64,000 nucleotides of DNA, taken from NCBI GenBank assembly GCA_964489445.1, contig CAZAYU010000002.1:77020-141019 (forward strand), given 5' to 3'. This document shows, piece after piece, positions 1-32,153 of the stretch (position 1 is the stretch's first letter; each line of letters begins with the position of its first letter). The stretch is from an uncultured Planctomycetia bacterium. Lineage in GTDB: Bacteria > Omnitrophota > Gorgyraeia > Duberdicusellales > 4484-171. The notes beneath the pieces were generated by a model that was given only the letters and a program-made list of their open reading frames with translations, ran no database searches and had not been told where the DNA came from. A program made the position numbers and the translations under genes.

Positions 1-88
1 TAAAGATATAGAAAATGCTTTCACAGAGGATAATTCTTTAAAAAGAGTAAGTGTTATTCTCTCGACTCGGAAAAAACCAAGTAGTATT

Positions 89-3000
89 TTGTCACGGGTT
101 AACGGAAAAGAGGAAGAACATTTGCCTAGCTGGCAGGATAGGTTTTCTGCTCTCAAAGGGTTCTTGGAAAAAGAAGGTATCTCTCAGGATATTTGCATTG
201 CAGTTTCTTATGCTGTCTGTTCCAAGATTGTGGATTCTCGAAAATTAAAATATCGATTACGTTTTTTTCAAAAGTACGGATTCTTAACAGAAAAAGAATG
301 CCGTCTTTTGATTAAAAGAAAATACATTGATTGGGAAAGATTTTCTCAAAGGATAGCGGAAGAGTATAGAGTATTGATAAACTCTTCACAGAAGTTTACG
401 GAGAAACAAGTTAAACTTATTTTAAAAAGAGGGTTTTCTGAGCAAGCAGCATGTGATTTAAAAAATAAATATCGAAAGTATGGAATTACAAAGAGTGAGC
501 TTGTTCAGTCAATGTGTAATCAGGATCCGGAAAAATACTTAGGTAAATTAATCATGCCTCGCGCTAGAGCAGATGGGAATAGAATGATATTTCGAAGGCA
601 TCTGGAAGATGAAATAGGAGTATTTTTCCTTCCAGCGGAAAGAAACGAAATAATAGACGGATTATTAGAATTTATTACTGGGAGGAAATGGGAGCACAAT
701 GAAGTTTTCGTTCGTAAATTAAATAAATTAACCCAATGTAACACTATAACCTTAAAGCAGAAAAATATGCTACTGAATATTGGAAGATATGCTTCCGAAG
801 CGTTTACCAATCAATTTAAACCTAAAGATGTTGCTCAACGGATAAAACAAAATATGATTTTGTATTTGGATCCATCATTGCAGAATGGACTGGTTACTCC
901 CCGGCAAGCTTTATTTTTAGTAGTTAGGGGGTATTTATATCCGGAATTTAAAAGCATTATGAATGAATACTGCTTGACTAAAACTGAGTTGTTGGAGGTT
1001 ATTCATGGGTATAGCAATCCGGGAGAAATTTTGGAAAAACTAAGGCCACAAAGGATTAATTATTTGCATCGAAAAACAAAATTGCCTGAATATTTCATAA
1101 AAATAATATTGATTAAACGGGGCAGCAAGATTACAGATGGATATTTAGAGGATTTGCTTAAAGAAGCAAAATACCTAATTAAAACATACGCAATACCTGT
1201 ATACATTGCTTTGAATTGGTATATCCGAGGCAATAATGCACAAAGCTTTAAGCAAAGGGTAGTCGGTTTAAGCCGACAGGAAGGGCTTCCGATTAGGTTG
1301 ACTTATCACTTATTTTTTCAAAGGGAGCTAACACAGAAAGATATCAATCGAAATATTATTATGCTATCTGAATCCTGTGGGAGAATTCTTCAGGAGAAAA
1401 AGGTGGCATATCAAAAGATGCAGGAGTCGTTATCTGCTTTAGAAAAAGATATTTATCGGGATGTAAGTTTTGTTCAGGCCGTGATTATCCGAAAAAAAAT
1501 CGAACAATTAGTAAAAGCACGTCCGAATAATGAAATATTAAATGGCTTAAAAAAAGAATTTGGGGTTAAGTATCATATACTACAGGAATTAGTAGATTTA
1601 ATTTTTAATCAACTTAAAAATGATAATTTAAGTGAGGCGATTTATTCTGGGGCAAGAAATAAAGGAGTGTCTCTGGCGGTGTATAGAATAGTAGAAGCAA
1701 GAAAGGAAATAAAAAAAATTGCCAAGACTGCTAGCAAAGAAATAACTGATTTTCAAAATAATAATTTAATGTATTTATACCAAAAACGTAAAAAAGCCAG
1801 TGTGAGAGAAAATTCAGAATTGAAAAAATGTTTGTCTGAAAAGATTGTTCAAAGAATATCTGGGAAGCTTGGAGGAGTTTTAGAAGAAAGTGTAATTATA
1901 GAATTAGGAGAAAAGATTATTTCCGGATTTTTTAATACTAAAAATGGAAAAGTAAAAAATAAATTAGAGCGTTTTAGAGAAAATGGATCATTGACTTTGC
2001 AACAATGTGCGCTTGTTGAGTCACACAGGTGGCAGGTGTTTAGTCGGGAAAACTGGCTTGACCGATTATCGGATAATTTAGTATTTGATGTCTCTAGGCT
2101 TAAAAGAGAGTTTGATTTTTCTGATAGTTTGGTAATAAATATTATTCTTAAAGGATATTATTACTCTTGGATTTGCGAGTTATATAGGCAATACCCTCAT
2201 CTTAAAAAATCCTTTTTAGACAGAATGTTTCGTGCTGAATTTCCGGAAAAATATCTTTTATGTCATTGTGGGCCATTGGATAGAGAGGTTAAAGCTGCTC
2301 AAGTTTTTATGAAAGAGCTGACCAAAAGTACTGATTTTTCTCTACCGAAGCAGGTTGAGGAGCTGTTAAGTCAGGATTATACATATCGGCAGTTAGTAGT
2401 TTTGGTATTGAATGCCAGGGTTAACCATTCAGAGTCAAATATTAGTTTAGGTAAGCAAGCGGCTCGTTATTTTGTTCAAGCGCATCTTTCAATTGCTGAA
2501 GAAATTGCTAAGGAATATCGTTATCGGTATTGTAGCAGGCAATGTATTCAAGAGGGAACAACGGCTTTATACGAAGCCTTAAAAAGTTATACTCCGGATT
2601 ATCAAAGCGAAAACGGATTTCCGGAACATGCGCGTAAGTTTATAAAACAGCGATATGAACAAATATTAAAAATGACAAGGAAGGATTATCAAAACCAAAA
2701 TTACCATTCTGTGAGTATTGATGCGCCGGCATATGGTGATTCTAGCCGAATTACAAAGCAGGAGATATTGGGTGTTAATGACATAGCCTCTGGTTTTGGA
2801 AATAATCTTCATCAGCTTAATCCGGAAGATAACATTATTTTTTCTGAAAAAGCTCAAAATGGATCAATAAAGCAAAAAGAAGAAAGGGAAGACCTAAGGA
2901 AAAATATTTTTTCAGATGTTGCAAGAAAACTTTATCAGCAAAAAAATATTTCTTCTGCTTGGTTAGAAATTTTATTAAGTGAAATTAATCAATATTCCGG

Positions 3001-6000
3001 AGATTCGGAAGATCTTTCTCAGCAATTTAATGTCGACGTTGAGGAGGTCGAGAAATGCCTTAAAATTGGGTTAGCAAAAATAGGTGAGCATATTATTGCT
3101 CATCCAGAGTTGATTGCACATTTTTCTATTTCTGCTGTTTCAGAAGTTAAACAGAAAAAAGGAACTTTGCAGTATGAGGAAAAAAAGGGTTCTAGTTCAG
3201 CATTAAAGGTAGTTGAACATTTATGTTGCAATGAAGAATTTATTGAAATTACTAACTGTGCTTCTTATCGTCATTTACGTTCTCCGCCTAAAAAGATAGT
3301 TATCCCTGAATGCAGCTACAGTCTCGCCAGATTTTTTCGCTTGTCTTTTGGCAGGGCAAGCTCGCCAGTAAATCAAGACAAAAATATTGCTTTCAAATAT
3401 AATCAAAATAATCCGGAGTCTATCATCGCTGAAACTTTCCTTGCTCGAATGTACGGAAACATAAATCCTGATAGAAAGGCTAAGATACTCTGGCAGCTAT
3501 TATTAGGAGCGGGGATAATTCCTTTTTGGCAGACAGCAAAGATAATATCAAAAACTATTATTTTTATGGTTTGGGCTACTTTTTGTTTCAAGTGGAACCA
3601 AAAATACAGAGAGCAGTTTTTTAAGACAGTCAAGGAAGACCTTAGTTGCCGCTATAGTAAGACTGCGTATATCGGCAATCAGACGACCGCGTGTAGAGTA
3701 GATTTTAAAGAAAGAATACAGAATAGAAAAATTGTGGAAGAGTTTACTCAATGCATAAGAAAAATATTCTCCTCCGTTATATTTATCTGGTGTTTTACAA
3801 CATTTTCTTGTTTGATGAAATTTGTTGATACGCTTGATGGACGTGCTGTAATAGTGTATTGTTTTGGTCTTCCAGAAATGGTGTTGTTTTTTGTTATATT
3901 GCCTGCGGCTGCATATTTATTCCTGATTAATGTGATCTATAATATCGACGTAATAGTTAGAGATTTAGAAAAATCTTTAGCTATAGAAACATCTATTATT
4001 TCGAGAAAATCTTCTTCTAATTGCGATAACAGTTCTAGCTCGTCGATTGAACGTAGATATACATCAAGTTTAAGAGAAATTAGCCATATTGGTGAAATTA
4101 TCAGGGAGTTAATCCGAAAAGATCCCTTTGCGGCTTTTTCATTTAATAATGAAAAACTTTGGATGCAAATTGTTCCGGATAAGAGTAATTGTCTGCGGTA
4201 TGTAATTTATCCTGAGGTTGGAGAGGTGCGTAGGCTATTTTTTCTAAGGGCGTTAAACAAACCGGTCGGTGATCCCTTTGTCGCTCCTTCTGGATCGTTA
4301 GGCCAAATTATTTTTTTCCTGAATAATTCTATTGAAATAGAAAAATTAGCCAGTGGTATGTTTTTGGAGGTGCAATCAAACATATGGCTGCGGCGGATGA
4401 ATCCAGAAATGCGTAATCTCCTTTTGCGCTGGATTATTTCGGCAGTTCAGCATATTATTTCAGCCGCGCATAAAGAGGGAATTTACGATTTTTACGCTTC
4501 GACTCCAAAATTTATAAAGAGTATATATTTAAGAGACGGCATAAGACTGGACCAAGGAAATTTAAAGAAACACTATCAACGGCCGTTTAGGCGACAATGG
4601 CAGAAAAAGGATATAGAAGTTTTAGATAAATATGTTAACTATACAGATAGTAATATTGTTCCACTTTGGTACTACAACAGAGAAAGTCGTTTATTAAAAA
4701 GCAGTAGCTCAATAAGTATTATTTCTGGCAAAGAACCGGAACCAATATCGGCAGTAAAGATAAATACTAACCCATTGACATCTAGCCAACAGGTATACCT
4801 AGAGAATGCTGCTAAAGGAAGAAAAATTCCTAGTTATTACTTAAATGTTATTTTTGAAAAATTCCGCAAATTAGAATTGATTAGTTCAGAAAGAGAATCT
4901 TGGGATAGATGCAGGCCTATTGTTCGGCTAGAAGCATTAAGAGTAGCCATGGCGAACCATTGGATAAAGCCGGGTAATATTAGCTTTTTAGAAGAAGTTA
5001 TCCGAAACCCGTTATCTCCGAAACAGCAAGATATTTTAGAGTTAATTTTAGATTTAGAACTTGATGTTCGGAATTTTTCACGAACGTACCAGATATTAGC
5101 TGATAAATTTAAAATAACTGTAAATTCTGTGGCGAATAACCATGTCAGACAGATATACAAAAAATTAAAAGTTAATTCTGGTTTAATTAAATCTGGATGG
5201 GGCCTAGTTGAGGCAGCAAAAATAGCAGCAGAAAGTGGATATATAAAATATGATGTTTCTAAATATGAAAGATTTGTGCAGAAATATTCTAAAATAGAAT
5301 TAACTGTTGGAGAGAAAAAATGTTTGATAAAGCAGATTTTTGGTATCGATAGTGAATATGTAAGGTCGCGTGACGCAAAGTTGATGAATGCAATGAGTAG
5401 CTGTAACCGGAGAATACGCAACAAATTGGGCATTCGCAAGAAATGGAATCGAGGCGATAGCATGATGCCGGTAGCAGATTATGTTTTACGGCAAGATATG
5501 ATTTCTACTGAAGACATAGTTACAGTTGCCGTGAGCTTGCCGTACATTACCAAAATATTTAGTGTAGATTTCCTGAAAGTTTATTTTTCTAGAAAACATT
5601 CTGCCAGAGATATAAAGGAAGCTTTTAAAGTATTTTTACCCGGTAATGTCGAAAAAACGAAGAAAATTATTCTTTTTTATATTTGCAATGTAAAACAAAT
5701 TATATATCCACTAACGTCTGGATGTTTAGAAGCTTTAGAAGATGCCTTGAGAGTGAATTTACCGGCAACAGTAAAACAATTTGGGCCGACAGTGTTTTTT
5801 GGTTTATTCGGCGAGGGAGAAAAAGATCTCGGAGCATTGGTAAGAAAATTAATAAGTAAGCGCGTTCATGATTTTAATCCGGGAGATCTTTCTTGCAGGA
5901 AGGAAAAGCTTGCTAGAGTATCAATAAAAGAACCGGAAGAAGAACCAGAGGAAGAATTTAAAACCGCTAATTCCGCTAACGTTGAGGAAATCAAAATGTT

Positions 6001-9000
6001 AACTAAATTTTTTAGTCCAGAGGAATTTGACCCCAACCTTCTCTATAAGGTTGGCGAAAAAATATTAGGAAACGGTTTTCTTTTGCCTGTTTTGGAAGAG
6101 AAAATTGATTTTATAATGGGTTTGCTTTTAGATCGTAACCGAAGGCATGATTATGTTTATGCTTTTTTAATTTTAAAAAAGGCAATGGAGGACCATCCTC
6201 AAAGAACCGCAGAGTTGTTTATTCCGCATCTCTTTTCTAAACAGTTGCCAATTAATAATGACGGGCTACCGTTTATTGAAAAGTTATATAAAGAAAGAAA
6301 TGGCTGGTTTGATTATTTTATTCATAAGCTATGGCCATATTTATCACAACCGTTAAAAAATGATATAAGCCAATTACAGAATCACAAGTCTTTATCATCT
6401 ACGGGTGTTGATTATTGGGGCATGAGCAGCTCATCTATAAATTACAAAAATTATAACGATTATGTTTGCACAAACAAAGAAACTATTGTTGGTTCTTCAG
6501 CGATAAATAATCGGCCGGTTAAATCTTTTACCGAATTAAATAAAGAGGAAGTTTTTAAATTAGTACCTAAAGGGTCCCGGCGGCACACAAGGAATGTTAT
6601 TCGACTAGTTGGGCAAATAGGAAATGTAGTCGGTTTAGCTCAGAAAGAGTTATGTTGTCTAAAATATCTTGCTTGCGCACATGATATTGGCAAGGGAAAC
6701 AAAAATATTTCTCACCTTTTCTTATCTTCAGAAATTTGGGACAAAAATGCAAAAGAAAGAAGGCTAGCCAGAAAACATTCTCGGTATACAGTTGTTATAC
6801 TGGAAAAACATTTTGGCATTCAGCTTCCACATGGCGAACGGCAGATTATTTTTTGGCATAATCGTTTGAAGGCGATTAATTGGAAATGGGTATCTTCGCA
6901 GAATAAGTTATTTTGGTTGATTTTAATCATCGCTGATATTATTGATGGTAGCATTGATACTTCAAGAAAACATAAGGTTGGAAAAAATCTTAAATTTGAT
7001 CCGGCTATGACGCTAAAGCGAATAAGGATAGTGGTTGGTGATTTGCTATCTGCCGATGACAATGTTAAAAAAATATATAATGTAGTTGAACGTTTATGTT
7101 TCAATGAAGAATTTATCGAGACAGCCAACCGCGCTTCCTATCGTCATTTACGTTCTCCGCCTGAAGAAATAGCTATTCCCAAATGTGGTGATAGCGTTAG
7201 TAAATCTGTTTATTCGGGCTGGAAGAATGGAAAGGCTGTTTCTAGCTCTGCAGTGTTTAGAGGAGTAAATTATTCTGCCAGCAAGATAGATATTAAGGAA
7301 ATAAGTATACCTAATATCCGTAATCATCATTATCAAATAATACTTAAAAAAACTAATAATGGTAATTGGCCGGGAATATGCAAGGTTTGGGTTAATTCAA
7401 CCTCAGTAGGTGACCTTGAATATTGGGTGCGTGAAACTCTAGTAGTTCTTAGACGTTTTTATATTAAAAGGAAATATCGAGGGGAGGGTATAGGCCAAAC
7501 GGTTATGCATTTTATTGCTGATTTAGTGTGGGAGAAAAATATTCGTTTTAATACTAAGACATTACTGGGGATAAGCGCTGTTACTGATGCCGTTCTCGTG
7601 CGTACCTTCTGCAATGCTATTGAAAATATTGTTTACGGCTCATTAGACGATCCTAAATCGACAGACAAAGAAGATCTTTTATCTAAAGTAAATAGTGGAG
7701 GAGGATTAAATTTTAGAGGCGATCCGATTGGCTTAAGCGCTCTTTATCCTAAAGAAAAAGAATGGCCTATTTTTTTTGAAAGCGCATCTTCAGTTGTAAA
7801 TGCTGACTATTGTAGCTCTAGTTTGCCGGTTAGTATATCGGATGAATTAATCACAGAAATTAAAGTTTTACGCAGAAGGGATGAGCCAGGTTACTCTAAT
7901 TTTATGCAATTACTGGATAAGGCCAACAGTTATGATATTAAGGCTGCCATAGACAGGATTGAACCTTATTTAAGAAGTTATTTTATATTGTTATTATCTA
8001 AAAAAGATCCTGAAAAATTAATTTTAAAATCAATTTCTCCCATGGATATTCTCCCTCTTGAAAAGATTGCTGATATTTTATCGATAGATTCTAGCGCCTT
8101 CATGATAGCCCAGTCGGCAGATGAATACAAAAATAGTATTTCTTTATATATCCCGGGTGAAACTAAATTGGTTAAGATATTTATCAGGTCGCTTAGTATG
8201 TTGCCGATTACAATATCTCGGTTTGCAGACAATAGGGAGCCGCTACCGCCATATATTAATGAATTTTTAGGCCGGAAAGGCGTCAAGAGCTGCATAATAC
8301 ATGACGGCTATCGCACAAGAGTACAACTGTTTTATGGATTGACTTGGAGATTTTCTATAGATTATTTTGAACTTGATTCTTCTCTTTGGGGCAAAGGTAT
8401 CGGCGATATTTTGTATGTGAATCTTGAACGCTACGCAAAGGAATGCGGGTTTACTGTTATATCGGTTGAAGGAGGATGTCCGGTAGAGCCGAAAAGTGAG
8501 GTGTTTTTTGCTAGGCAGGGATTCTCAGAATCTTTTGCGATTAGAGATGAAGGCGGAAGAGAAAGCAATCCCCAAATGACATTTATTGTGTTTAAAAAAA
8601 TAATTTCTAGCGCATTTGCAGATAACTCTAGCTCTCCAATGGATAAAGAAGATTATAAGGATTTTGGTCAAAAACAAGGATCAAAAGAACAAGCCGCTAA
8701 TGAAAAAGAAGAAATTGAAAATGCTTTGAGAAAAACAAGAGTCAGGAATGAAGCTGCAAAGATTTTTGGTATCTCTCCTGCTCAATTTTACCGGAAAATT
8801 AAAAAACATGGCATTGATCTAAACACATTTTCGAAAAAAAAGGGACGGCTTTCTGATATTACAAAAGAAAAAATGGAGGAATTGATTATCAGACACAAAG
8901 GTTCTGTTGCCGCTATAGCTTATGAATTGAAGGTGTCTGGCACAGCGGTTTCTCTCTTATTAAAAAAATATGGACAAGCAGATTGGGCCAAGGAACAAAG

Positions 9001-12000
9001 AAAAAAATATGGCAAAATAATAAATAAAAAACGTTTTCAAATGATGATGTCTTCCTGGAAAAAGAATAGAAAAACTGCGGTAAGAGAAGTAACCAGAATT
9101 TGCTTTGGTGAAGAGAATATCAACGCGGATGATGAAATATTTTTTTGGGAAAAAGAAAATCGGATAAAAGTGACAAAAATATTGGATGCTGTAGTAAAGG
9201 ATATTATCGGAGAAGGGTTTCATGTGATACCCGAAATCAGGAGGAACAAATTTATTTTGGCTTGTGGCTTAAGAGAGTTATTGGTAAGCGCTAAAGCGGC
9301 TTCTTCCCGGGAACTATTAAAGGAAGCTGGATTGATTCCGGCTGGAAACTGTTTAGATGGCTTAGAAGTAAGTAGCTCTGCGTTGTTTAATTTTGGTTGG
9401 AGGTTGGCTTTACCGGTAAGTAGAGCGATTAATCATTATTCGCTTAAATGCTTTAGAGTAAAGCAGCCAAAAAGCAATTTAATAGTTATTGATGTGAAGA
9501 TAGGAAAGGAAAAAAAAGGATGCATAAAGTCATTAAGTAGCAAGCGTTTGATTTTGTCTGCCGGAGAAAGTTTGCCATTTAAGTCCTGTGAAATAATAGA
9601 TGTTAAAAGTATTGAATTTATCGAAAAAGATAGCCGGAAAAAATCCAGCTCTTCACTTAAAACAATAGGATTTGGTTCATCTGATTTATCGTTTGACAGG
9701 TGTCACAAAGAAGCACAAAGATTAATTAAGACTTTGCAATATAAAGGCATACCCTGGACAGATGCTTATATGCGGGTATTGCCGGAGGTAGAAAAGGTTA
9801 CGAAAAAATATCCGGATAAATGGTTTATATCAGCAATTAATTTGGGTATAGCAATTACAAAAGAAGGTCTTCTTCCTTGCCCAATATTATATTACGGTGT
9901 GGGGCTAGCAGTTATAAGCTCTAATGCAAGCTTTGACCAGTATAAACAAAATCTTAATTGTCTAAAATATTGGGCGGAAGAAATAAGCCGAATTGTTTGG
10001 AAAAATGTAAATGAGGAAGGTGAGAAATATAATTTTAGACAGATAAGCACAACAAAGAGTAAAAATATAATTTGGAGAAATACTGCTTATAGGAAAATAG
10101 ATGATTCGCTAAAAAGTATTGAAGTCAATGGAATAACCAGTTCAAGGCGTTTACGAACTGCGTTGGATGAGTCTTCTGGCTATTCAATAAATTGGCCTTC
10201 CAGTTGTCTAGTTACGTTTTGTAGTGATCAATCCGAGTATAAAAATTACATAATACGTTTTTTATCTAGATGTTTGGGTAATGGGCATTCGAAGAATGTA
10301 AATGTAAAGGAAAGATTGGAAGAGAATGTTTCAAGTTCATCGGTAGAGATAGTATTTAATTCACCAGATTGGGAGGCCATTAGGAATACAGAGCTTTTTT
10401 CTGTAGTTGTGCCTATTTCCGGTCGTACCGATGATTACAATATATTTTATCAAAAGACATATGATTGGCTATTATATTTTTTCCGATTATCTTTGTTTAA
10501 AGAGCAAATCGCAGATTTATTGTCATATACTTTGGCGGAGATATTTCACGATGCAGTAAGAAAAAATTTAGATTTGCGTGCAGCGTATTCACTTTCCGGA
10601 TTTTTTGTTTTGGATAATAGTACAGAATGCGCACCGGTATATTTAAATGCGGAATTTATTCAAAAAGCAAATAGTCAGACTGATTATCAATGGTTGCTTT
10701 CAACTCAGAAAGAATATGCAAAACAAGGTCCGGATTATTTATTAAGTGAAAAGATTCAAAAAAACAGACAAGATATTGATGATGATTTTAGGTATGGATT
10801 AGCGCAATTCGCTAGATTAATTTATGAGTTGCCTTGTTGTCTAAAGTATGCGGTAAGCTCTATAGCGCCTTTTAAAACTACAGTAGAATTTACTGTCAAA
10901 ATTATGAATTTACCTGATTTTGTAGAAAAAGATGTTCCAATTTGTACATTGAAAAAAGAAAAATTGCAAAAAGCAAAAGTGTTACTTACGAGCGAATTAT
11001 CAAAATGGAAGAATCAGTTAGACCTAACTTTAGCGTTTAGCGGGCAAGAAAATCGTGAGCATATTTTTTTCCGTAAAGGTTTAATGCAGTTATCAATGAA
11101 AAATCTTATTAGTTTACGGACATTTGAAGAAATTAGAGAGGTATTATTAAGTGCGCATAAGATTATTTTTAAAATACATGAAAATATCATAACTTTACCA
11201 TCTTTATCAGGAAAAGAAAAACTTAAAATTTCTTCAGGACGATTAGCAAATATAAACTTTAACTGTGCATTTTTAAAGCAATGGCTTGGAGAACTTTTTA
11301 AGGAAATAGAGGTTATTGAAAATATTGGTCATCATTCAAACGGAAAAGCTAAAGTAAGAACACTTTTGCCTAAAAAAGTCAGTTCTTCAATTATGAAAGC
11401 AGAGAAAGAAGCTATTACCTCACTGGCGGTTATTTCTTGTTTGACTAGAGGAGAAGAAGAATTATCTTTGTTGGATACCTCCTTTTATTTCCCGCAGTAC
11501 CTGCGAAAAAAAACAAGCGAATTTGTCTATGGTTCAAATAATCCGGTTTCTTCTTCGGCGGTTAAAAGTAATGAATATTTATTTGGCCTCAAAATCATCA
11601 GCATGAAAATTATTTACTCAGAGAACCCGGAAAGTGTTTTAGAACAAATTCTACAGCTTAGCATGCGTTTTGCGGTTGAAGACGGAGAAATGCTGATGAC
11701 AAAAGAGTATATAAAAGATGAGATCGAAAATGATTCCAAAGATTTCAATTTAGCCTTTGTTGATGCCGCCGGAGTAATTATTGGATATCTTTTGACTCAA
11801 GAATCTCCGCGTCATCCCAATGCCTTGTGGTTTACTTTTATGGGAGTAGAGAAGGAACGCAGGAATAAAGGTTTTGCAAAGATGATGATGAAAATCGCCG
11901 CCTTGAAGGCTGTAGAATATAATATAGAAAGGATAAAATTAGGAGTAAGAAAAGAGAATAAAATAGCTATCGCTATGTATGAAAGATGCGGGTTTCAAAG

Positions 12001-15000
12001 AGATCCAATAACTTATTTTAAAAGCGAAAAAGAGGAAATTAATTTCCAAGATTATTCGGAAACGATGAGTAAAAAATATGGTTTTAAAATGAGCTCTCAA
12101 GATAAAATCACAATTGACGGAGTTGGCTATGAATTTGTGGATTTCTCTGCTGTGCCGTCTGAGATAGTAAAAAGTATAATAAACACTTCGTCGTTAGAAT
12201 TAAACGAGGAATTTAAGGAGTCGCGTATTATTGCCTTTGGTTTAAATTATAACCCTAGATTAACCAGCTTCCTGCGGGTTATAAGCACATTAATTGAAGT
12301 GTATGGGCGCTTTAAGGAAAAAGACATCAGTTTACGAATCGTTCGCCTCTGGGATGAACAGGAGTTGAATTTTGAGAAACCGATAGAGTGCTATACTTTT
12401 CAAATTTCTCATAGTGAGCAAATTAAATTGGTTATCGAGAGCAAAACAAGATCTAAGGAAGCAGTTGTTGAGGCAATGAATATCGTTGCCTGTCTTCTGA
12501 CGCAACCGGAATTTGAAAACGGATTAAACTGTCGTAATGCTCCTGAAAAACAAAAATTCGATGAGCTCTTCCATAAATTTAGAATAATTTTGTCTTTGGA
12601 AGGATCGTCGCCTGATTCTCCTCTTTCTGTTGCTACCGCTGCCTCACCGAAGAGCACTAGCTCGCCTGTTAATAAAAATTGGCGCCAGAAACTTATAAAT
12701 GCCGCAGATGATTTAAGAGTATTAAAATTGGAAGGTATTATTTTAAGCCGGCTTAGTGATTTCGAAAGAACAATACTGCAAAAGCGTACGGAATTTCCTC
12801 CGGTAGATAGAAAAAATGTGGCTGCTGAACTAGGGTATCCAGTATGGAAGGTAGCCAATATTGAGCGAATGCTTTCGGTAAAGGTTCCGGCACTGTTAAA
12901 ATTATGGAAACATGCCGATGCAGTCTTAATAGCATTATTCAACGGCTGTAGGGTAAATATTAATTATATCGGTATAAAAAATATAGATTTGCTCAGCCGG
13001 ATGATTGAACCTGCTGTTCGTTTCAGTAAGAAAGAGACCGAATTAATGAAATTTTTGTGTCAGATTATCGAATACAGAGAACAAAAAAGCAGCGAAATTA
13101 ATAGTCTTATAGTAATCAAAAGAGAAATGTCTTTAGGAATTTTTCAAGTTAAACCATCTACGTGGAGAATATTTGTTCAGAACTTCCGTGGTACAGATGA
13201 TCCTCTTTCTTCATCATCTCTGGTTTTTAGTTCCAGTTTGTCGACGGAAATAGAAGAAGTAATTGCACAGACATTAACGTCTGTCGCCTCGCCGGTGAGT
13301 ATAAGTGAAAAAAGAATCAGGAAAGTAAGAATATTTTTAAAAGAGCACCTTAATCCTAACATCATCGGTATTATAGTACACGGCTCTACAGCTAGAGGTG
13401 ATGCCTTAGAAGAAAGCGATTTTGATTTTGGTTTAATTAAAATAAACGGCGATTTTACTTATGAATTGACTCAGGCGGACCTAGATTTTCACAGAGGGCT
13501 TTTAAGATGTTTGGCACCTGTGAAGGTAGATAACCAGCTTAAACCTCTAATTTGGAAAGGAGAGGAGGCTTTTAATAAATTTGTAAGTTTATATTTTTTG
13601 GAACGCAAATACGCTACTGCCATTGAAGATGTACCGTGGGTTAATAAGCTGGAAGCTTTTATTAAAAGTTACCGCATAATTGCGAGAAACAAAGAGCTGG
13701 AAAATATAATTTATCAAAGAATAGAGGATGCTAGAAAATCGATTATGAAATCTGTACGAAATAAAGAAAATAAAACAGCTTTTACCAGCTCGTCAATAGA
13801 TGGTAGCAAGAGGCAAAGGATTAATAATCTGGCTGAATATAAGAGGCTAATGAAATTGAATGCACAGTTGTTAGTACGAAGTAACACTGTTTCTTCGAGC
13901 TTTCCGGCGGAAAAAGATGGAGAGGTAGAACGCTCTTTGATAAGTGTGGATTCTTTTATGGATTTTACAGGGCCGGTTTATTATCCTGCCAGCGAATTGG
14001 ATTTAGAAAGTATGGTTTGGTTGGCGAGATTATTTCCAAAACTTAAGATGTTGATGTATGTCGATGTTTTGGATCCGGATGAAATGAATGCAGCAACTGT
14101 TTTTAAACCAGAGGAAGATGACGGTGAAGGTGTTAGTGGAGCATTTCGATATTATGGGCCCGACGATATGTCATTATTGCAGCGTCAGATGCAAAATAAA
14201 CTATCTCAATTTCAATATCATAATGAGGCTATTATTGATTACAAAAATACTGGGGTAGATATTATTTCGGTTGAAGACATGGAATTGCTACTTAAGGTAT
14301 CTTTTAAAAGAAACATCAAAAAAGCCCCGTGGCTAAATAGCAGAGTTATAGAAATTAATTTTTTAGTTTGTGATATTTTTGATTACAAAAAAATATTTAA
14401 CGTAATTTATGTTAACTATCCCGGATATTGTGGTGGCTTAGCAAGAGTAGAAGAATTTTGGGTATTAATGCGTAAGCAGATTTCTGAGCAGGGATGTTTG
14501 TTAGAGACAAATATACATCGTAAAACACCTAAAACTAGAGTTTTTAAGAAGAAACTTTTTTCTAAGACGGACCAGATAAAATTAACCCAATATCCGCGCA
14601 TAGATGTTTTACGACCGATAAAAATTATCTCTGCCTCGCCGCTAAACTACTCGAACTTAGCATTGGGTTCAGTAAGAGAATCCAGGGTTAGCTCGACAAT
14701 AAGTCATTGTTCCAAAGTTGTTTCGATAAGAAAATTAACGCTTGCTGATTTTGATGTGTCTAATTACTCATCTTCTTCTGTATCCGCAAGTTCTAATTTA
14801 GTGACAAGTAGTATTCTCGGTAATTTATACAATATGAGAAACATGTTCATTGCGTATCAGGATATTCTTAGTAGTTCCGGGAAGATGATTCAAGCGTGGG
14901 TTAATGAGTCAATAGCTGCTATGTATAAGCCGGATATTAGGTCAAAAGAGATCAGAAGAGCAAAAAAGATTACAGAGCTAATGCCTGATCCTCAAAGAAT

Positions 15001-15991
15001 AAGTCTTACGGACAATGGAAGATATAACTGGTTTGGTTGGTTTAATCTTGAGAATATTGATGTTTGGCGGATTTTAGGGTTTGGATGTATTGATCCTTGT
15101 CAATTTTGTCTACAGGAAAATGTAAAATCAAAAGCAGTTAATTATCCATTACCGGTGATTATCAAGTTGGTAATTGAAGAGAACCCAGCAGCGCAATTTA
15201 ATTTTTGGCATAATAATGAACCGTTTCAGTGGTATGATCCGTTTTTTAAGAGTTCCTTAGACGGACTAATTGAATTTACTGTACGACGATATCCGCATAT
15301 GTTTTTTTATGTGACAACAAGAGGCTTTGAATTGAGTGATTGTCGTTCAGAAAAGACTGCCAGAAATATTTGCAATTTGGTAAATGAATATCCGCAACTA
15401 AAGAATCGTATTTTTAATGTTTCTTTTCATCTTTGCTTAGGAACTCTTAAGTATGACATTATCCGCGCGATAGCATATCGGGGTAAACAGCCAGAAATAT
15501 TTAATCAAGTCCGAAAAAATTATATTGAAAGGTATAGAAATATCTTTTCAGCTTTAAACAGTGCAATTCAAAGAATTTATATTTATCGAGACGGTCCAAA
15601 TAATTTTTTAGGAGAAATTAATTGGGATATTTTTGCTAAAGCAACTCAAGAGATAGGGAGGCACGAATGGCAGGTAGAGTCACATACGATAGGCAATCAT
15701 GATTCTTATAATAAAAGCAGGGATTTTATCAACAGGCTTAAGCAGGCATTTAATGGCAAATATGTTAGGGCTTCTTATATGAGAATACAGAACCGGGATT
15801 TTATTCCAGAGGATAACGTTCCTCAGATAGAGACATTCAAGAGTGGAAAAGTTATTATTCGCAGTAATGGGGAGGAAATTGCAAGATCGACATTAGTTGA
15901 CTTAGATTATCATCCAGAAGCTGCGCTGAGAATTAATGGGTGCGGATTAGGTGTTGAGAGCAATTATGGTGCACCAATAAATGTTCAGTAA
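89..15991 (+). CDS. Giant multidomain protein of at least 5300 aa. The 5' end is uncertain. The first in-frame start-like codon is TTG at 89; a TTG at 122 has a GAGGA Shine-Dalgarno 7 nt upstream. The same frame is open, with no stop, back to window position 2, so the gene may begin upstream of the window.
   Basis: Single stop-free frame of 15.9 kb in an AT-rich sequence, which is impossible by chance. Codon and composition usage match the neighbouring genes. Multiple enzyme and HTH motifs are recognisable (listed as separate features). No N-terminal signal peptide. Confidence 0.85.
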   Translation: MSRVNGKEEEHLPSWQDRFSALKGFLEKEGISQDICIAVSYAVCSKIVDSRKLKYRLRFFQKYGFLTEKECRLLIKRKYIDWERFSQRIAEEYRVLINSSQKFTEKQVKLILKRGFSEQAACDLKNKYRKYGITKSELVQSMCNQDPEKYLGKLIMPRARADGNRMIFRRHLEDEIGVFFLPAERNEIIDGLLEFITGRKWEHNEVFVRKLNKLTQCNTITLKQKNMLLNIGRYASEAFTNQFKPKDVAQRIKQNMILYLDPSLQNGLVTPRQALFLVVRGYLYPEFKSIMNEYCLTKTELLEVIHGYSNPGEILEKLRPQRINYLHRKTKLPEYFIKIILIKRGSKITDGYLEDLLKEAKYLIKTYAIPVYIALNWYIRGNNAQSFKQRVVGLSRQEGLPIRLTYHLFFQRELTQKDINRNIIMLSESCGRILQEKKVAYQKMQESLSALEKDIYRDVSFVQAVIIRKKIEQLVKARPNNEILNGLKKEFGVKYHILQELVDLIFNQLKNDNLSEAIYSGARNKGVSLAVYRIVEARKEIKKIAKTASKEITDFQNNNLMYLYQKRKKASVRENSELKKCLSEKIVQRISGKLGGVLEESVIIELGEKIISGFFNTKNGKVKNKLERFRENGSLTLQQCALVESHRWQVFSRENWLDRLSDNLVFDVSRLKREFDFSDSLVINIILKGYYYSWICELYRQYPHLKKSFLDRMFRAEFPEKYLLCHCGPLDREVKAAQVFMKELTKSTDFSLPKQVEELLSQDYTYRQLVVLVLNARVNHSESNISLGKQAARYFVQAHLSIAEEIAKEYRYRYCSRQCIQEGTTALYEALKSYTPDYQSENGFPEHARKFIKQRYEQILKMTRKDYQNQNYHSVSIDAPAYGDSSRITKQEILGVNDIASGFGNNLHQLNPEDNIIFSEKAQNGSIKQKEEREDLRKNIFSDVARKLYQQKNISSAWLEILLSEINQYSGDSEDLSQQFNVDVEEVEKCLKIGLAKIGEHIIAHPELIAHFSISAVSEVKQKKGTLQYEEKKGSSSALKVVEHLCCNEEFIEITNCASYRHLRSPPKKIVIPECSYSLARFFRLSFGRASSPVNQDKNIAFKYNQNNPESIIAETFLARMYGNINPDRKAKILWQLLLGAGIIPFWQTAKIISKTIIFMVWATFCFKWNQKYREQFFKTVKEDLSCRYSKTAYIGNQTTACRVDFKERIQNRKIVEEFTQCIRKIFSSVIFIWCFTTFSCLMKFVDTLDGRAVIVYCFGLPEMVLFFVILPAAAYLFLINVIYNIDVIVRDLEKSLAIETSIISRKSSSNCDNSSSSSIERRYTSSLREISHIGEIIRELIRKDPFAAFSFNNEKLWMQIVPDKSNCLRYVIYPEVGEVRRLFFLRALNKPVGDPFVAPSGSLGQIIFFLNNSIEIEKLASGMFLEVQSNIWLRRMNPEMRNLLLRWIISAVQHIISAAHKEGIYDFYASTPKFIKSIYLRDGIRLDQGNLKKHYQRPFRRQWQKKDIEVLDKYVNYTDSNIVPLWYYNRESRLLKSSSSISIISGKEPEPISAVKINTNPLTSSQQVYLENAAKGRKIPSYYLNVIFEKFRKLELISSERESWDRCRPIVRLEALRVAMANHWIKPGNISFLEEVIRNPLSPKQQDILELILDLELDVRNFSRTYQILADKFKITVNSVANNHVRQIYKKLKVNSGLIKSGWGLVEAAKIAAESGYIKYDVSKYERFVQKYSKIELTVGEKKCLIKQIFGIDSEYVRSRDAKLMNAMSSCNRRIRNKLGIRKKWNRGDSMMPVADYVLRQDMISTEDIVTVAVSLPYITKIFSVDFLKVYFSRKHSARDIKEAFKVFLPGNVEKTKKIILFYICNVKQIIYPLTSGCLEALEDALRVNLPATVKQFGPTVFFGLFGEGEKDLGALVRKLISKRVHDFNPGDLSCRKEKLARVSIKEPEEEPEEEFKTANSANVEEIKMLTKFFSPEEFDPNLLYKVGEKILGNGFLLPVLEEKIDFIMGLLLDRNRRHDYVYAFLILKKAMEDHPQRTAELFIPHLFSKQLPINNDGLPFIEKLYKERNGWFDYFIHKLWPYLSQPLKNDISQLQNHKSLSSTGVDYWGMSSSSINYKNYNDYVCTNKETIVGSSAINNRPVKSFTELNKEEVFKLVPKGSRRHTRNVIRLVGQIGNVVGLAQKELCCLKYLACAHDIGKGNKNISHLFLSSEIWDKNAKERRLARKHSRYTVVILEKHFGIQLPHGERQIIFWHNRLKAINWKWVSSQNKLFWLILIIADIIDGSIDTSRKHKVGKNLKFDPAMTLKRIRIVVGDLLSADDNVKKIYNVVERLCFNEEFIETANRASYRHLRSPPEEIAIPKCGDSVSKSVYSGWKNGKAVSSSAVFRGVNYSASKIDIKEISIPNIRNHHYQIILKKTNNGNWPGICKVWVNSTSVGDLEYWVRETLVVLRRFYIKRKYRGEGIGQTVMHFIADLVWEKNIRFNTKTLLGISAVTDAVLVRTFCNAIENIVYGSLDDPKSTDKEDLLSKVNSGGGLNFRGDPIGLSALYPKEKEWPIFFESASSVVNADYCSSSLPVSISDELITEIKVLRRRDEPGYSNFMQLLDKANSYDIKAAIDRIEPYLRSYFILLLSKKDPEKLILKSISPMDILPLEKIADILSIDSSAFMIAQSADEYKNSISLYIPGETKLVKIFIRSLSMLPITISRFADNREPLPPYINEFLGRKGVKSCIIHDGYRTRVQLFYGLTWRFSIDYFELDSSLWGKGIGDILYVNLERYAKECGFTVISVEGGCPVEPKSEVFFARQGFSESFAIRDEGGRESNPQMTFIVFKKIISSAFADNSSSPMDKEDYKDFGQKQGSKEQAANEKEEIENALRKTRVRNEAAKIFGISPAQFYRKIKKHGIDLNTFSKKKGRLSDITKEKMEELIIRHKGSVAAIAYELKVSGTAVSLLLKKYGQADWAKEQRKKYGKIINKKRFQMMMSSWKKNRKTAVREVTRICFGEENINADDEIFFWEKENRIKVTKILDAVVKDIIGEGFHVIPEIRRNKFILACGLRELLVSAKAASSRELLKEAGLIPAGNCLDGLEVSSSALFNFGWRLALPVSRAINHYSLKCFRVKQPKSNLIVIDVKIGKEKKGCIKSLSSKRLILSAGESLPFKSCEIIDVKSIEFIEKDSRKKSSSSLKTIGFGSSDLSFDRCHKEAQRLIKTLQYKGIPWTDAYMRVLPEVEKVTKKYPDKWFISAINLGIAITKEGLLPCPILYYGVGLAVISSNASFDQYKQNLNCLKYWAEEISRIVWKNVNEEGEKYNFRQISTTKSKNIIWRNTAYRKIDDSLKSIEVNGITSSRRLRTALDESSGYSINWPSSCLVTFCSDQSEYKNYIIRFLSRCLGNGHSKNVNVKERLEENVSSSSVEIVFNSPDWEAIRNTELFSVVVPISGRTDDYNIFYQKTYDWLLYFFRLSLFKEQIADLLSYTLAEIFHDAVRKNLDLRAAYSLSGFFVLDNSTECAPVYLNAEFIQKANSQTDYQWLLSTQKEYAKQGPDYLLSEKIQKNRQDIDDDFRYGLAQFARLIYELPCCLKYAVSSIAPFKTTVEFTVKIMNLPDFVEKDVPICTLKKEKLQKAKVLLTSELSKWKNQLDLTLAFSGQENREHIFFRKGLMQLSMKNLISLRTFEEIREVLLSAHKIIFKIHENIITLPSLSGKEKLKISSGRLANINFNCAFLKQWLGELFKEIEVIENIGHHSNGKAKVRTLLPKKVSSSIMKAEKEAITSLAVISCLTRGEEELSLLDTSFYFPQYLRKKTSEFVYGSNNPVSSSAVKSNEYLFGLKIISMKIIYSENPESVLEQILQLSMRFAVEDGEMLMTKEYIKDEIENDSKDFNLAFVDAAGVIIGYLLTQESPRHPNALWFTFMGVEKERRNKGFAKMMMKIAALKAVEYNIERIKLGVRKENKIAIAMYERCGFQRDPITYFKSEKEEINFQDYSETMSKKYGFKMSSQDKITIDGVGYEFVDFSAVPSEIVKSIINTSSLELNEEFKESRIIAFGLNYNPRLTSFLRVISTLIEVYGRFKEKDISLRIVRLWDEQELNFEKPIECYTFQISHSEQIKLVIESKTRSKEAVVEAMNIVACLLTQPEFENGLNCRNAPEKQKFDELFHKFRIILSLEGSSPDSPLSVATAASPKSTSSPVNKNWRQKLINAADDLRVLKLEGIILSRLSDFERTILQKRTEFPPVDRKNVAAELGYPVWKVANIERMLSVKVPALLKLWKHADAVLIALFNGCRVNINYIGIKNIDLLSRMIEPAVRFSKKETELMKFLCQIIEYREQKSSEINSLIVIKREMSLGIFQVKPSTWRIFVQNFRGTDDPLSSSSLVFSSSLSTEIEEVIAQTLTSVASPVSISEKRIRKVRIFLKEHLNPNIIGIIVHGSTARGDALEESDFDFGLIKINGDFTYELTQADLDFHRGLLRCLAPVKVDNQLKPLIWKGEEAFNKFVSLYFLERKYATAIEDVPWVNKLEAFIKSYRIIARNKELENIIYQRIEDARKSIMKSVRNKENKTAFTSSSIDGSKRQRINNLAEYKRLMKLNAQLLVRSNTVSSSFPAEKDGEVERSLISVDSFMDFTGPVYYPASELDLESMVWLARLFPKLKMLMYVDVLDPDEMNAATVFKPEEDDGEGVSGAFRYYGPDDMSLLQRQMQNKLSQFQYHNEAIIDYKNTGVDIISVEDMELLLKVSFKRNIKKAPWLNSRVIEINFLVCDIFDYKKIFNVIYVNYPGYCGGLARVEEFWVLMRKQISEQGCLLETNIHRKTPKTRVFKKKLFSKTDQIKLTQYPRIDVLRPIKIISASPLNYSNLALGSVRESRVSSTISHCSKVVSIRKLTLADFDVSNYSSSSVSASSNLVTSSILGNLYNMRNMFIAYQDILSSSGKMIQAWVNESIAAMYKPDIRSKEIRRAKKITELMPDPQRISLTDNGRYNWFGWFNLENIDVWRILGFGCIDPCQFCLQENVKSKAVNYPLPVIIKLVIEENPAAQFNFWHNNEPFQWYDPFFKSSLDGLIEFTVRRYPHMFFYVTTRGFELSDCRSEKTARNICNLVNEYPQLKNRIFNVSFHLCLGTLKYDIIRAIAYRGKQPEIFNQVRKNYIERYRNIFSALNSAIQRIYIYRDGPNNFLGEINWDIFAKATQEIGRHEWQVESHTIGNHDSYNKSRDFINRLKQAFNGKYVRASYMRIQNRDFIPEDNVPQIETFKSGKVIIRSNGEEIARSTLVDLDYHPEAALRINGCGLGVESNYGAPINVQ
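2530..2700 (+). other. Sigma-70 region-2-like segment inside the giant ORF (CIQEGTTALYEALKSYTPDYQSENGFPEHARKFIKQRYEQIL).
   Basis: Resembles the sigma-70 r2 consensus (LIQEGNxGLMKAVEKFDPxxGxxFSTYAxxWIRQAI) in spacing and residue classes. Motif-level only. Confidence 0.35.
3208..3313 (+). repeat. Copy A of a 35-aa intragenic motif (VVEHLCCNEEFIEITNCASYRHLRSPPKKIVIPEC).
   Basis: About 80% nucleotide identity over roughly 105 nt to copy B at 7082..7186. The same reading frame is conserved. Confidence 0.85.
3480..3960 (+). other. Cluster of 3-4 hydrophobic, putative transmembrane, segments inside the giant ORF, about aa 1131-1291.
   Basis: Stretches IIFMVWATFCFKW, IFSSVIFIWCFTTFSCLM and AVIVYCFGLPEMVLFFVILPAAAYLFLINVIY are each 13-30 consecutive hydrophobic residues. 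Confidence 0.5.
5012..5180 (+). other. LuxR/GerE-type helix-turn-helix module inside the giant ORF (LSPKQQDILELILDLELDVRNFSRTYQILADKFKITVNSVANNHVRQIYKKLKV).
   Basis: Matches the LuxR-type pattern LSxRExxVLxLxxxGxSxxEIAxxLxISxxTVxxHxxxIxxKL. Confidence 0.45.
6590..6900 (+). other. HD-domain phosphohydrolase-like module inside the giant ORF. The HD dyad is at nt 6680..6685 (H2198-D2199).
   Basis: RRHTRNVIRLVGQIG...LKYLACAHDIGK has the HD-superfamily signature of a first His followed by the xxHDIGK motif. His and Asp residues further downstream fit the metal-ligand positions. Confidence 0.5.
7082..7186 (+). repeat. Copy B of the 35-aa intragenic motif (VVERLCFNEEFIETANRASYRHLRSPPEEIAIPKC).
   Basis: Paired with copy A at 3208..3313. 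The two copies are 3874 nt apart. Confidence 0.85.
7447..7640 (+). other. GNAT acetyltransferase-like core number 1 inside the giant ORF (RRFYIKRKYRGEGIGQTVMHF...).
   Basis: Matches the acetyl-CoA-binding motif A pattern R-x-x-G-x-G/A (YRGEGIGQTVM). Confidence 0.45.
8368..8500 (+). other. GNAT acetyltransferase-like core number 2 inside the giant ORF (LWGKGIGDILYVNLERYAKECGFTVISVE).
   Basis: WGKGIGDIL followed by an aromatic/acidic and GF segment is typical of GNAT motifs A and B. Confidence 0.4.
8707..8975 (+). other. Two tandem Fis/NtrC-type HTH motifs inside the giant ORF (NALRKTRVRNEAAKIFGISPAQFYRKIKKHGIDL and EELIIRHKGSVAAIAYELKVSGTAVSLLLKKYG).
   Basis: Both fit the C-terminal HTH of sigma-54 activators and Fis (AL..T.GN...AA..LGISR.TLYRKLKKYGI). 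Confidence 0.5.
11790..12010 (+). other. GNAT acetyltransferase-like core number 3 inside the giant ORF (VEKERRNKGFAKMMMKIAALKAVEYNIERIKLGVRKENKIAIAMYERCGFQ).
   Basis: RRNKGFAKMMM (motif A) followed by AIAMYERCGF (motif B, YxxxGF) is classic GNAT spacing. Confidence 0.5.
12737..12900 (+). other. Sigma-70 region-4-like HTH inside the giant ORF (LSDFERTILQKRTEFPPVDRKNVAAELGYPVWKVANIERMLSVKV).
   Basis: Resembles the r4 pattern LxxRERxVLxLRF...TLxEVGxxxGVTRERIRQIExKAL. Confidence 0.3.
13361..13445 (+). other. Minimal Pol-beta-type nucleotidyltransferase motif inside the giant ORF (IIGIIVHGSTARGDALEESDFDFGLI).
   Basis: hG[GS]x9-13Dh[DE]h signature: HGSTARGDALEESDFDF. Confidence 0.5.
15078..15988 (+). 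other. C-terminal radical-SAM-like segment of the giant ORF. Cys codons lie at nt 15086, 15098 and 15107 (C5000-x3-C5004-x2-C5007).
   Basis: GFGCIDPCQFC is a CxxxCxxC cluster. It is followed by WHNNEPFQW (GGEP-like) and YVTTRGF (TNG-like) at the expected spacing for a radical SAM core. Confidence 0.4.
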
Positions 15992-16069
15992 ACATAAGTC
16001 AAATATCTAATAATTTGGTAGAAAAAAAATATTGATGTGATAAAATAAAGTTATAAAGGAGGTAGATTA

Positions 16070-16381
16070 ATGAATATTCAAGGATTGAAGAATCGCAGGT
16101 TATTTGAAAGAACTCCTTGCGCTCTTCTGGGAGACTACAACAATAGCAATCATAAGGCAGTAGGAACCAAGTGCTATGACATATCTACAACTGGTGCCGG
16201 ATTATTTCTGTTTGAACGTCTAGCTAAGGGATTTGAAATGCAGCTTAACCTGATTACTAAAAAAATAGCGCCTTTATCTTTAGCCGGAAAAATTTGCTGG
16301 TGCCGAAAGGAAGCCACTGGCTATCGGGCTGGAATCGCTTTTAATAAAAGTTTAAATCTTCCCTTAGAGGCACTTGCCTAA
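16070..16381 (+). CDS. PilZ-domain protein, a putative c-di-GMP receptor.
   Basis: RRLFER (RxxxR) and DISTTGAGL (DxSxxG) motifs. A strong AAGGAGG Shine-Dalgarno lies 7 nt upstream. The start is 79 nt downstream of the giant ORF stop. Confidence 0.6.
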   Translation: MNIQGLKNRRLFERTPCALLGDYNNSNHKAVGTKCYDISTTGAGLFLFERLAKGFEMQLNLITKKIAPLSLAGKICWCRKEATGYRAGIAFNKSLNLPLEALA

Positions 16382-24842: not shown

Positions 24843-24909
24843 TTATTTATTTTGTTTCTTGGGAACATACTTAGTGTTTTTTTGCTTAATAGACTTATTT
24901 AAAAGAGTA

Positions 24910-31974: not shown

Positions 31975-32153
31975 ACTGTTAGAAGATTACTGTCACAGTT
32001 TGATTAATAATTTAGCATTGTATATTTTGTTTTTAGGGAAGATGTTGTAAAATTTTCTAGTTATAAGTTCACAATCCTGAGAGGGATTAATTTGATTGTG
32101 TAATTTTTTCGTGTTTTGACTTAAAAAATTATAATTTTATTGAGGAGGGAAAA

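Follow-up and report, generated by a model that had tools for sequence, protein, structure and literature searches.

The giant reading frame and its upstream neighbour

The DNA studied here is a stretch of 64,000 nucleotides (nt), called the window throughout, from an uncultured bacterium of the Omnitrophota (GenBank assembly GCA_964489445.1, contig CAZAYU010000002.1, positions 77,020 to 141,019). It opens with the C-terminal part of a giant open reading frame (ORF), which is the subject of this report. The frame runs uninterrupted for 5,300 codons (window 89..15991, plus strand) in surrounding DNA of 33-37% G+C (about 35%); nt 89 is the first start codon given by the ORF lister, and the frame continues past the 5' edge of the window. 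At this composition ~7% of random codons would be stops, so 5,300 open codons are not the product of chance and the frame has been kept by selection. On a metagenome contig in ENA (k141_159262), which matches the window at every position over 23,962 nt, the full-length protein (P0001) is 6,616 amino acids (aa) long, or 19.9 kb of DNA. An independent contig from JGI agrees with window 12999-16368 at 100% identity. A preliminary description of the window had presented the ORF as a 5300-aa polypeptide. The single frame was borne out, and the length was found to be that of the window portion only.

The ENA contig also revealed a second giant ORF directly upstream. It was called at 12,639 aa, a lower bound as it touches the start of the contig; the analysis covered its last 3,308 aa. 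The two giant ORFs are in the same reading frame, with one TAA between them and no other in-frame stop in the 72-nt spacer. That TAA (L001 9926-9928) precedes window position 1 by 3.9 kb. The annotated start of the 6,616-aa ORF gives a stub of 19 aa, followed immediately by SSSS-L. The two ORFs could be one frame of at least 19,280 aa, split by a nonsense codon, readthrough or an assembly error.

Serine junction motifs between complete protein units

The 6,616-aa protein is a string of about 20 unrelated modules, each of the size of a complete protein, in one chain. These include a membrane-anchor module (probable, see below), an HD module, three GNATs, a Fis-type helix-turn-helix (HTH) module, a minimal nucleotidyltransferase (NTase), a class I methyltransferase-like fold, a radical S-adenosylmethionine (SAM)-fold enzyme, several unassigned modules and short spacers. 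A specific word recurs between the complete protein units: three or four serines and then a hydrophobic residue, S-S-S-(S) followed by L/I/V/A/P/F, which appears every 30-570 residues. The ORF and its junctions in the window are as follows.

1..15991, plus strand: tail of the giant ORF (P0001), comprising the C-terminal 5,300 codons and the stop codon; the 5' side lies beyond the window edge
3191..14779, plus strand: seventeen SSS(S)+hydrophobic junction motifs, starting at nt 3191, 4031, 4700, 6425, 7241, 7814, 8627, 9371, 9644, 10331, 11381, 11549, 13208, 13229, 13787, 13892 and 14768
3359, 12605, 12659 and 14630, plus strand: degenerate junction forms (SSP/ASP)

Counted as SSS+[LIVAFPMC], the motif was present in 29 copies in the 9.9 thousand residues of the two giant ORFs, whereas shuffled sequences had a mean of 2.1 and a maximum of 8. 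The 41 neighbouring ORFs (14.5 thousand residues) had 2 copies against 2.1 expected, and enrichment of any other homotriplet was not found. Serine codon use in the runs was the same as elsewhere (chi-square p = 0.43), which indicates that the constraint is at the level of the peptide and is not a DNA or RNA signal. We also considered a junction signal at the nucleotide level (a recombination site, an RNA processing site or a recoded codon) and rejected it, as 'AGCTC' reflects ordinary serine codon use. Internal translation starts at the junctions were rejected as well, there being no start codon or ribosome-binding pattern after the motif.

Comparison of the junctions with the domains of the chain showed that the motif is found only between units. 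Pieces of 183, 188, 225, 243, 245, 268, 346 and 403 aa between motifs match the sizes of whole single-domain proteins, and short spacers of 30-90 aa are also present. With Pfam matches and blocks shared with other proteins by homology both counted as domain envelopes, no junction motif fell inside an envelope in the window ORF (0/17, P = 0.009), nor in two long relatives described below, P0003 (0/19, P = 0.002) and P0017 (0/7). The only SSS within a module is an SSSG (aa 4928), which has no hydrophobic residue after it and is a confident loop in the model of the radical SAM module. In AlphaFold2 (AF2) models, residues adjoining the junctions were low-confidence tails around compact folds.

Modules as cassettes and the junction words of other lineages

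When 5,000 aa of the ORF were used as query, a word-indexed protein search returned only the self-match, even at E<=10. An exhaustive HMMER search with the last 1,200 aa against 1.84 billion representatives returned 59 relatives, showing that the first result reflects a limit of sensitivity and not true orphan status. Close relatives of the last 1,590 aa were not found in scans of genome contigs and metagenome contigs, a search aimed at the full 12,639-aa upstream protein returned only two relatives, and no giant ORF was found within 10 kb of ClpC in the ClpC-flanking loci of related genomes. All of the module relatives that have names are Candidatus Omnitrophota/Omnitrophica.

The HMMER matches, which fall in three modules of the query, begin and end at junctions. 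Similarly, in blastp comparisons of the two giant ORFs with P0003, P0013, P0004 and P0017, six of the eight blocks start 2-20 residues from a junction in both partners, and the remaining two start 28-40 residues from one. P0013 is 74% identical to the upstream giant up to a junction motif, after which the modules differ; further along, it has homologues of the NTase and the second GNAT of the window ORF. In P0003, an HD module 65% identical to that of the upstream giant is followed 640 residues later by a counterpart of the window ORF's radical-SAM-like module (39%); this module is internal in P0003 and C-terminal in the window ORF. P0058 terminates exactly at '...GSSS', and in P0017 a PfkB kinase (Pfam, 176-494) is flanked by junctions at 149 and 512. 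P0003 (>4,224 aa) also carries a complete sigma-70 factor, with regions 2, 3 and 4 at 3652-3866, that starts 10 residues past a junction. The sigma-70-family module as a whole spans residues 3646-4006 and is internal, and the same chain holds Peptidase_M28 and HATPase_c modules. The modules act as cassettes: the same families are found standalone and in other long proteins of Omnitrophota, in variable order and always flanked by the junction word of the lineage concerned.

A scan for enriched 4-mers in the long relatives identified the other words, namely SSSPV, DRTSP[VM], RRRSPSG, AAPAGR, D-x-A-M and R[SA]E[VLM]R. The three module families of the HMMER search are flanked, in each protein that contains them, by the word of that protein. 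As descriptive figures, counts of degenerate forms of the words were 5-17 per protein versus 0.0-1.0 expected, and R[SA]E[VLM]R occurred 7-17 times per protein versus about 0.1 expected. Named examples of four word types were all from Candidatus Omnitrophota. Four proteins with the D-x-A-M word (P0005, P0033, P0041 and P0048) share a conserved module, 'GGIDL(N/T)...KFHID.AM...G..PVIINI', at or near the C-terminus. It is terminal in P0005 and P0033, is absent from the window protein, and might be a sorting signal.

Assignment of the modules

Pfam models were run on ten overlapping tiles of the window ORF. The modules that were delimited, and the motifs within them, are listed here.

3200..4009, plus strand: putative membrane-anchor module bounded by junctions (Kyte-Doolittle hydropathy only)
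3209..3331, plus strand: first of two copies of a 41-aa internal repeat (VVEHLCCNEEFIEITNCASYRHLRSPP...), with a junction motif immediately before it
6437..7240, plus strand: HD phosphohydrolase-like module (window ORF aa 2117-2384), with HDIGK at nt 6680-6694
7082..7204, plus strand: second copy of the 41-aa repeat, in the C-terminal end of the HD module and shortly ahead of a junction motif
7250..7813, plus strand: GNAT-like module 1, 188 aa, motif A RGEGIGQ (YRGEGIGQTVM at nt 7475-7507), weak Pfam match of 15-18 bits
7823..8626, plus strand: GNAT-like module 2, 268 aa, WGKGIGD (WGKGIGDIL at nt 8387-8413), Pfam 19.7 bits
8636..9370, plus strand: Fis-type HTH (HTH_8) module, Pfam 38.5 bits (cut-off 22)
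9380..11548, plus strand: four junction-delimited modules of 88, 225, 346 and 53 aa without family assignment
11558..12604, plus strand: GNAT module 3 with a ~200-aa C-terminal extension, Acetyltransf_1 51.7 bits (cut-off 20.7), RRNKGFAKMMM at nt 11858-11890 and YERCGF at nt 11978-11995
12668..13207, plus strand: 180-aa module between SSP and SSSS junctions, no Pfam match, HTH-like by eye (unconfirmed)
13238..13786, plus strand: minimal (MNT/Pol-beta type) NTase module, 183 aa, NTP_transf_2 (PF01909) 30.6 bits (cut-off 21), NTase motif HGSTARGDALEESDFDF at nt 13379-13429
13901..14629, plus strand: 'FxGPVYYPASELDL' module, predicted class I SAM-dependent methyltransferase fold
14780..15988, plus strand: C-terminal radical-SAM-fold module, 403 aa, CIDPCQFC at nt 15086-15109

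Every motif quoted in the preliminary description was found where it had been placed, in the one uninterrupted frame. Its domain assignments were broadly borne out, at unequal strength by Pfam: GNAT 3, the NTase and the HTH were above cut-off, the HD domain was just under, GNATs 1 and 2 were weak and Radical_SAM was unmatched. Homologues did conserve the Asp pair of the NTase (in G-S/D-x-D) and the Cys triad, both of which it had singled out. Modules of the kinds it had listed also exist elsewhere as separate genes, with standalone homologues of the NTase (P0055, 176 aa) and of the radical-SAM-like module (380-450 aa).

The only strong transmembrane-like segments in the ORF (nt 3761-3826 and 3839-3958, Kyte-Doolittle scan) make the 3200..4009 module a probable membrane anchor, judged by simple hydropathy. 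These segments are confined to one junction-delimited module, and the remaining chain looks soluble. The 41-aa repeat (VVE[HR]LC.NEEFIE..N.ASYRHLRSPP..I.IP.C) is the only internal repeat of its size in the 6,616-aa protein; its two copies are 66% identical and each adjoins a junction motif.

The HD module scored 20.2 bits to PF01966, below the cut-off of 22, and has the H..HD..D residues (RHTRNV ... AHDIGK ... IADIIDG). The HD module of the upstream ORF scored 23.6 bits and its homologue in P0003 scored 27.9 bits (Pfam). The candidate GNAT assignments of modules 1 and 2 are weak (15-20 bits by Pfam, with motif A, R/Q-x-x-G-x-G/A, present). Module 1 is of a length compatible with a GNAT, and module 2 is homologous to residues 1384-1633 of the Omnitrophota protein P0013 (blastp E 2e-18). 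Judged by its profile score, GNAT module 3 is a firm assignment. In the NTase, the catalytic hGS and SD.D residues were kept in all ten aligned homologues.

Pfam has no model for the family at 13901-14629. An AF2 model of this module had a predicted local distance difference test score (pLDDT) of 70.5, and its fold matched class I SAM methyltransferases only.

The C-terminal module has >30 homologues, about half of them the standalone proteins noted above and about half within long proteins. Its CxxxCxxC triad (C103, C107 and C110) was invariant across 19 aligned sequences. An AlphaFold model built from the homologue alignment had a pLDDT of 85 and a predicted template modelling score (pTM) of 0.85, and the module conforms to the partial TIM-barrel core fold of radical SAM enzymes. 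The radical-SAM-like identity proposed in the preliminary description was therefore upheld by both the invariant cysteines and the predicted fold. With PF04055 the window sequence was unmatched, and a weak match (E 0.013) was obtained in only 2 of the 19 homologues; no family was found with NCBIfam models, a PDB sequence-profile search or Foldseek. PDB sequence searches with the HD module and the C-terminal module gave no matches. Similarity specific to viperin was not found, as viperin was no closer than ~25 other radical SAM enzymes. We conclude that the module is a divergent radical-SAM-fold family and is not specifically viperin-like.

Genomic neighbourhood

The 48 kb downstream of the giant ORF is ordinary chromosome, including genes for Opp, MetH, LysS, LolCE/D, McsB-ClpC, Mla, RadA, IspDF, CysS, Tmk, HolB, MetG and TatD. 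In a set of 185,579 species, each represented by one genome, the window's ClpC had its best matches in three metagenome-assembled genomes of Candidatus Omnitrophota, at 79%, 72% and 72% identity. A scan of the whole 64-kb window found no tRNA gene and no Rfam match. We rejected a mobile or defence island as an explanation of the locus based on the even G+C across the window, the housekeeping neighbours, the lack of a tRNA gene and a near-empty PADLOC result.

Several further observations were made on the neighbouring genes. GC skew was positive in every 2-kb bin (0.09-0.30) across window 1-64000, and the plus strand carries every ORF accepted as a gene except four (nested antisense ORFs set aside). 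A PilZ-domain gene of 103 aa (window 16070-16381) begins 79 nt past the giant-ORF stop, before the Opp transporter operon. Between MetH and LysS are two overlapping ORFs (23892-24842 and 24685-25701; 316 and 338 aa) with no NCBIfam match; the 158 nt that they share suggest that a start was mis-set or that there is a frameshift. An McsB-like arginine kinase gene adjoins ClpC (window 30916-34601), and the organism also has Lol and Mla systems. A recognisable Shine-Dalgarno sequence was present in only some of the window genes.

A candidate cellular polyprotein

The cleavage sites of viral polyproteins are short, sharp words between domains that differ by lineage. The junction words of the giant ORFs have this appearance, being located only between complete units, constrained at the peptide level and replaced wholesale between lineages, and this likeness leads us to read the chain as a cellular polyprotein that may be cut at its junction words. 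The preliminary description had named a polyprotein as an alternative to its main interpretation, and the junction evidence, which is indirect, favours that alternative. We hypothesize that the giant ORF would be translated as a single polypeptide, that a lineage-specific protease would cut the chain at the junction words (S-S-S|hydrophobic), and that cutting would free the individual enzymes and regulators, some of which would perhaps stay on the membrane-anchor module. We give this reading a probability of about 45%. With regard to a candidate protease, some relatives have trypsin-like (GxSGxP) or HExxH motifs, identified by pattern matching only, and P0003 has a Pfam Peptidase_M28 domain.

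Several points weigh against this reading. The cleavage is something we infer from patterns of sequence, and a search of the 6,616-aa ORF and the last 3,308 aa of its upstream neighbour for protease motifs and domains came back empty. Kinases, glycosyltransferases or docking partners could equally well recognise a short specific word. There is no strict SSS junction across 1,938 aa of the chain (P0001 413-2350), and the AF2 model of the methyltransferase-like module is only moderate. The words of the other lineages were set after viewing the same sequences, which is why their enrichment figures are descriptive, and in a crude test of the most frequent 4-mer only 7 of the 33 long relatives were above all shuffles.

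The main rival is an uncleaved scaffold: an intact, membrane-anchored megaprotein, multi-enzyme or regulatory, in which the words are linkers, insulators or sites of serine modification (phosphorylation, glycosylation) that regulate the neighbouring modules. The transmembrane-like module within the chain (nt 3200-4009) would suit such a protein, as would the absence of a protease from the visible sequence of the locus; serine-rich motifs are plausible targets of kinases and glycosylation, and in a 2026 catalogue nearly half of the long proteins of Omnitrophota are interpreted as arrays of cytoplasmic enzymes anchored in the inner membrane, with GNAT/HD/methyltransferase content (bioRxiv 10.64898/2026.06.07.730766). 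However, linkers are usually long and loose in composition, whereas these are sharp words of 4-7 residues whose chemistry is wholly different by lineage (SSSPV, RAEVR, DxAM) at the same positions, and the complete sigma-70 factor of P0003 could presumably act only once released. A scaffold accounts less well than a polyprotein for how sharp the words are and for how they turn over between lineages, and on balance we consider it unlikely. Less probable again is that the chain or its modules are exported to a host or prey cell and processed there, with the modules acting on host targets. Omnitrophota are regarded as host-dependent or predatory, with links drawn between their giant proteins and contact with the host (bioRxiv 10.1101/2023.11.21.568195; PMC10066038), and many unrelated enzymatic heads per polypeptide is the defining trait of polyvalent proteins (PMC5512222). 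Yet the ORF and the visible upstream part gave no sign of a signal peptide, an RTX repeat, or a secretion or cysteine protease domain, secretion, phage and conjugation genes were not found in the 48 kb downstream, and the modules look regulatory or housekeeping (HTH here; the sigma factor and PfkB kinase in relatives).

The main interpretation in the preliminary description, a fused toxin-antitoxin (TA) or anti-phage defence megaprotein, now seems very improbable. TA and defence systems do make repeated use of GNAT, MNT-type NTase, HD and radical SAM domains, and the NTase motif matches the PADLOC candidate family PDC-S09 at 27 bits. That match, however, spans 38 residues of a generic motif, beyond which there is only a 14-bit trace of a Cas3 HD domain, and the same mix of domains is common content of Omnitrophota giant proteins (bioRxiv 10.64898/2026.06.07.730766). 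No HEPN family was reported near the NTase in the tiles (Pfam E<=0.1; PADLOC E<=0.01), there is no antitoxin arrangement and no defence-island neighbours, and the radical SAM module is, as described, no closer to viperin than to the other enzymes. The TA and defence framing thus found no specific support from PADLOC, from the neighbouring genes or in a HEPN partner. A GNAT toxin of a type II TA system was rejected separately, as the GNATs are internal modules of a 6,616-aa frame and not small standalone toxins with an adjacent antitoxin. That the ORF is an artefact (a misassembly, a decayed pseudogene or several genes misread as one) is scarcely credible. As a whole protein it is a singleton, and most of its modules are without Pfam matches, but 5,300 stop-free codons at 35% G+C are impossible in non-coding or decayed DNA, the identical sequence is present in two assemblies from different repositories, the homologues keep catalytic residues, and the junctions have no stop codons and no start or ribosome-binding signals.

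Comparison with known systems and significance

Giant ORFs are common in Omnitrophota and count as a hallmark of the phylum, with a function that is 'poorly understood' (Seymour et al. 2023, PMC10066038). They carry glycosyltransferases, methyltransferases, peptidases, GNATs and more, and proteolytic processing has been suspected (West-Roberts et al. 2023, bioRxiv 10.1101/2023.11.21.568195), although missing information on cleavage points prevented the splitting of these ORFs in that work. A catalogue of 916 proteins of at least 10 thousand aa included a 'multi-enzyme' class, with singletons making up 80% of sequence clusters (Nielsen & Lui 2026, bioRxiv 10.64898/2026.06.07.730766), and described one domain community of methyltransferase, HATPase, GNAT, HAD and HD, with radical SAM in a second. 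The window ORF is from the same phylum as these multi-enzyme (Archaeovorin-type) proteins and is similarly a long ORF tiled by many divergent enzyme domains, none of them dominant by copy number, with few Pfam matches, uniqueness at the whole-protein level, a probable membrane segment and suspected cleavage. At 6,616 aa and 19.9 kb it falls just under the thresholds used for these proteins (>20 kb or >=10,000 aa), and its upstream neighbour, at least 12,639 aa, is above them. The SecA-DEAD-like, C39 and S8 domains that are common but not universal in Omnitrophota giants were not found in the 6,616-aa ORF or the last 3,308 aa of the upstream ORF. Overall, the window ORF fits this kind of giant protein in organism, content and divergence, and is somewhat shorter unless joined to its in-frame neighbour. 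The fusion of so many modules, which the preliminary description had called 'highly unusual', therefore has counterparts already catalogued in Omnitrophota, where giant ORFs are tiled with GNAT, HD, methyltransferase, HATPase and radical SAM domains; what stands out is the junction motif. Junction motifs are not mentioned in either giant-ORF preprint, nor in any paper that literature searches on the words, or on polyproteins and Omnitrophota, brought up. The serine punctuation, its counterparts in other lineages and the cassette shuffling at junctions are described here. As far as the literature search reached, junction punctuation and cassette behaviour are new.

The resemblance to other systems is partial in each case. 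Like viral polyproteins of the picornavirus, flavivirus and birnavirus type, the window ORF has many complete proteins in one ORF, junction words specific to the lineage and small spacer peptides; unlike them, it is a gene of a cellular chromosome with no cis protease found in its visible sequence, and its cleavage is inferred. MARTX toxins are also arrays of unrelated domains in a chain of several thousand residues and are cut at inter-domain linkers, whereas the window ORF has no RTX repeats, cysteine protease domain or nearby type I secretion genes, and many of its modules look regulatory. Polyvalent proteins (Iyer et al. 2017, PMC5512222) similarly combine disparate enzymatic domains (methyltransferase, HD, NTase-type), sometimes with processing peptidases, but have 2-15 domains and belong to mobile elements, in contrast to the approximately 20 or more modules, housekeeping neighbourhood and regular junction word of the window ORF. 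With the building blocks of TA and defence systems (GNAT toxins, MNT-HEPN and prokaryotic viperins) it shares broad domain superfamilies; it differs in having no partner genes, defence context or specific family match, and in having all modules fused in one frame.

Whether these giant proteins act as one chain or are cut could not be addressed in the field because the cleavage points were not known. The junction words provide exact candidate peptide termini, making cleavage testable by proteomics, and allow giant ORFs to be divided into their real units before structures are predicted and annotation is made. A handle for finding the processing enzyme would come from proteases that co-vary with the words. 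As a tentative and somewhat doubtful extension, the giant genes of Omnitrophota at large may be cellular polyproteins, from which dozens of enzymes and regulators, even sigma factors, would be freed at junction words that co-evolve with a dedicated protease, with cassettes gained, lost and reordered at the junctions. If the polyprotein reading is true, it would represent a polyprotein strategy in a cellular organism, with gene expression organised like that of RNA-virus polyproteins rather than in operons, and it would explain why there are so many orphan enzymes in these small genomes.

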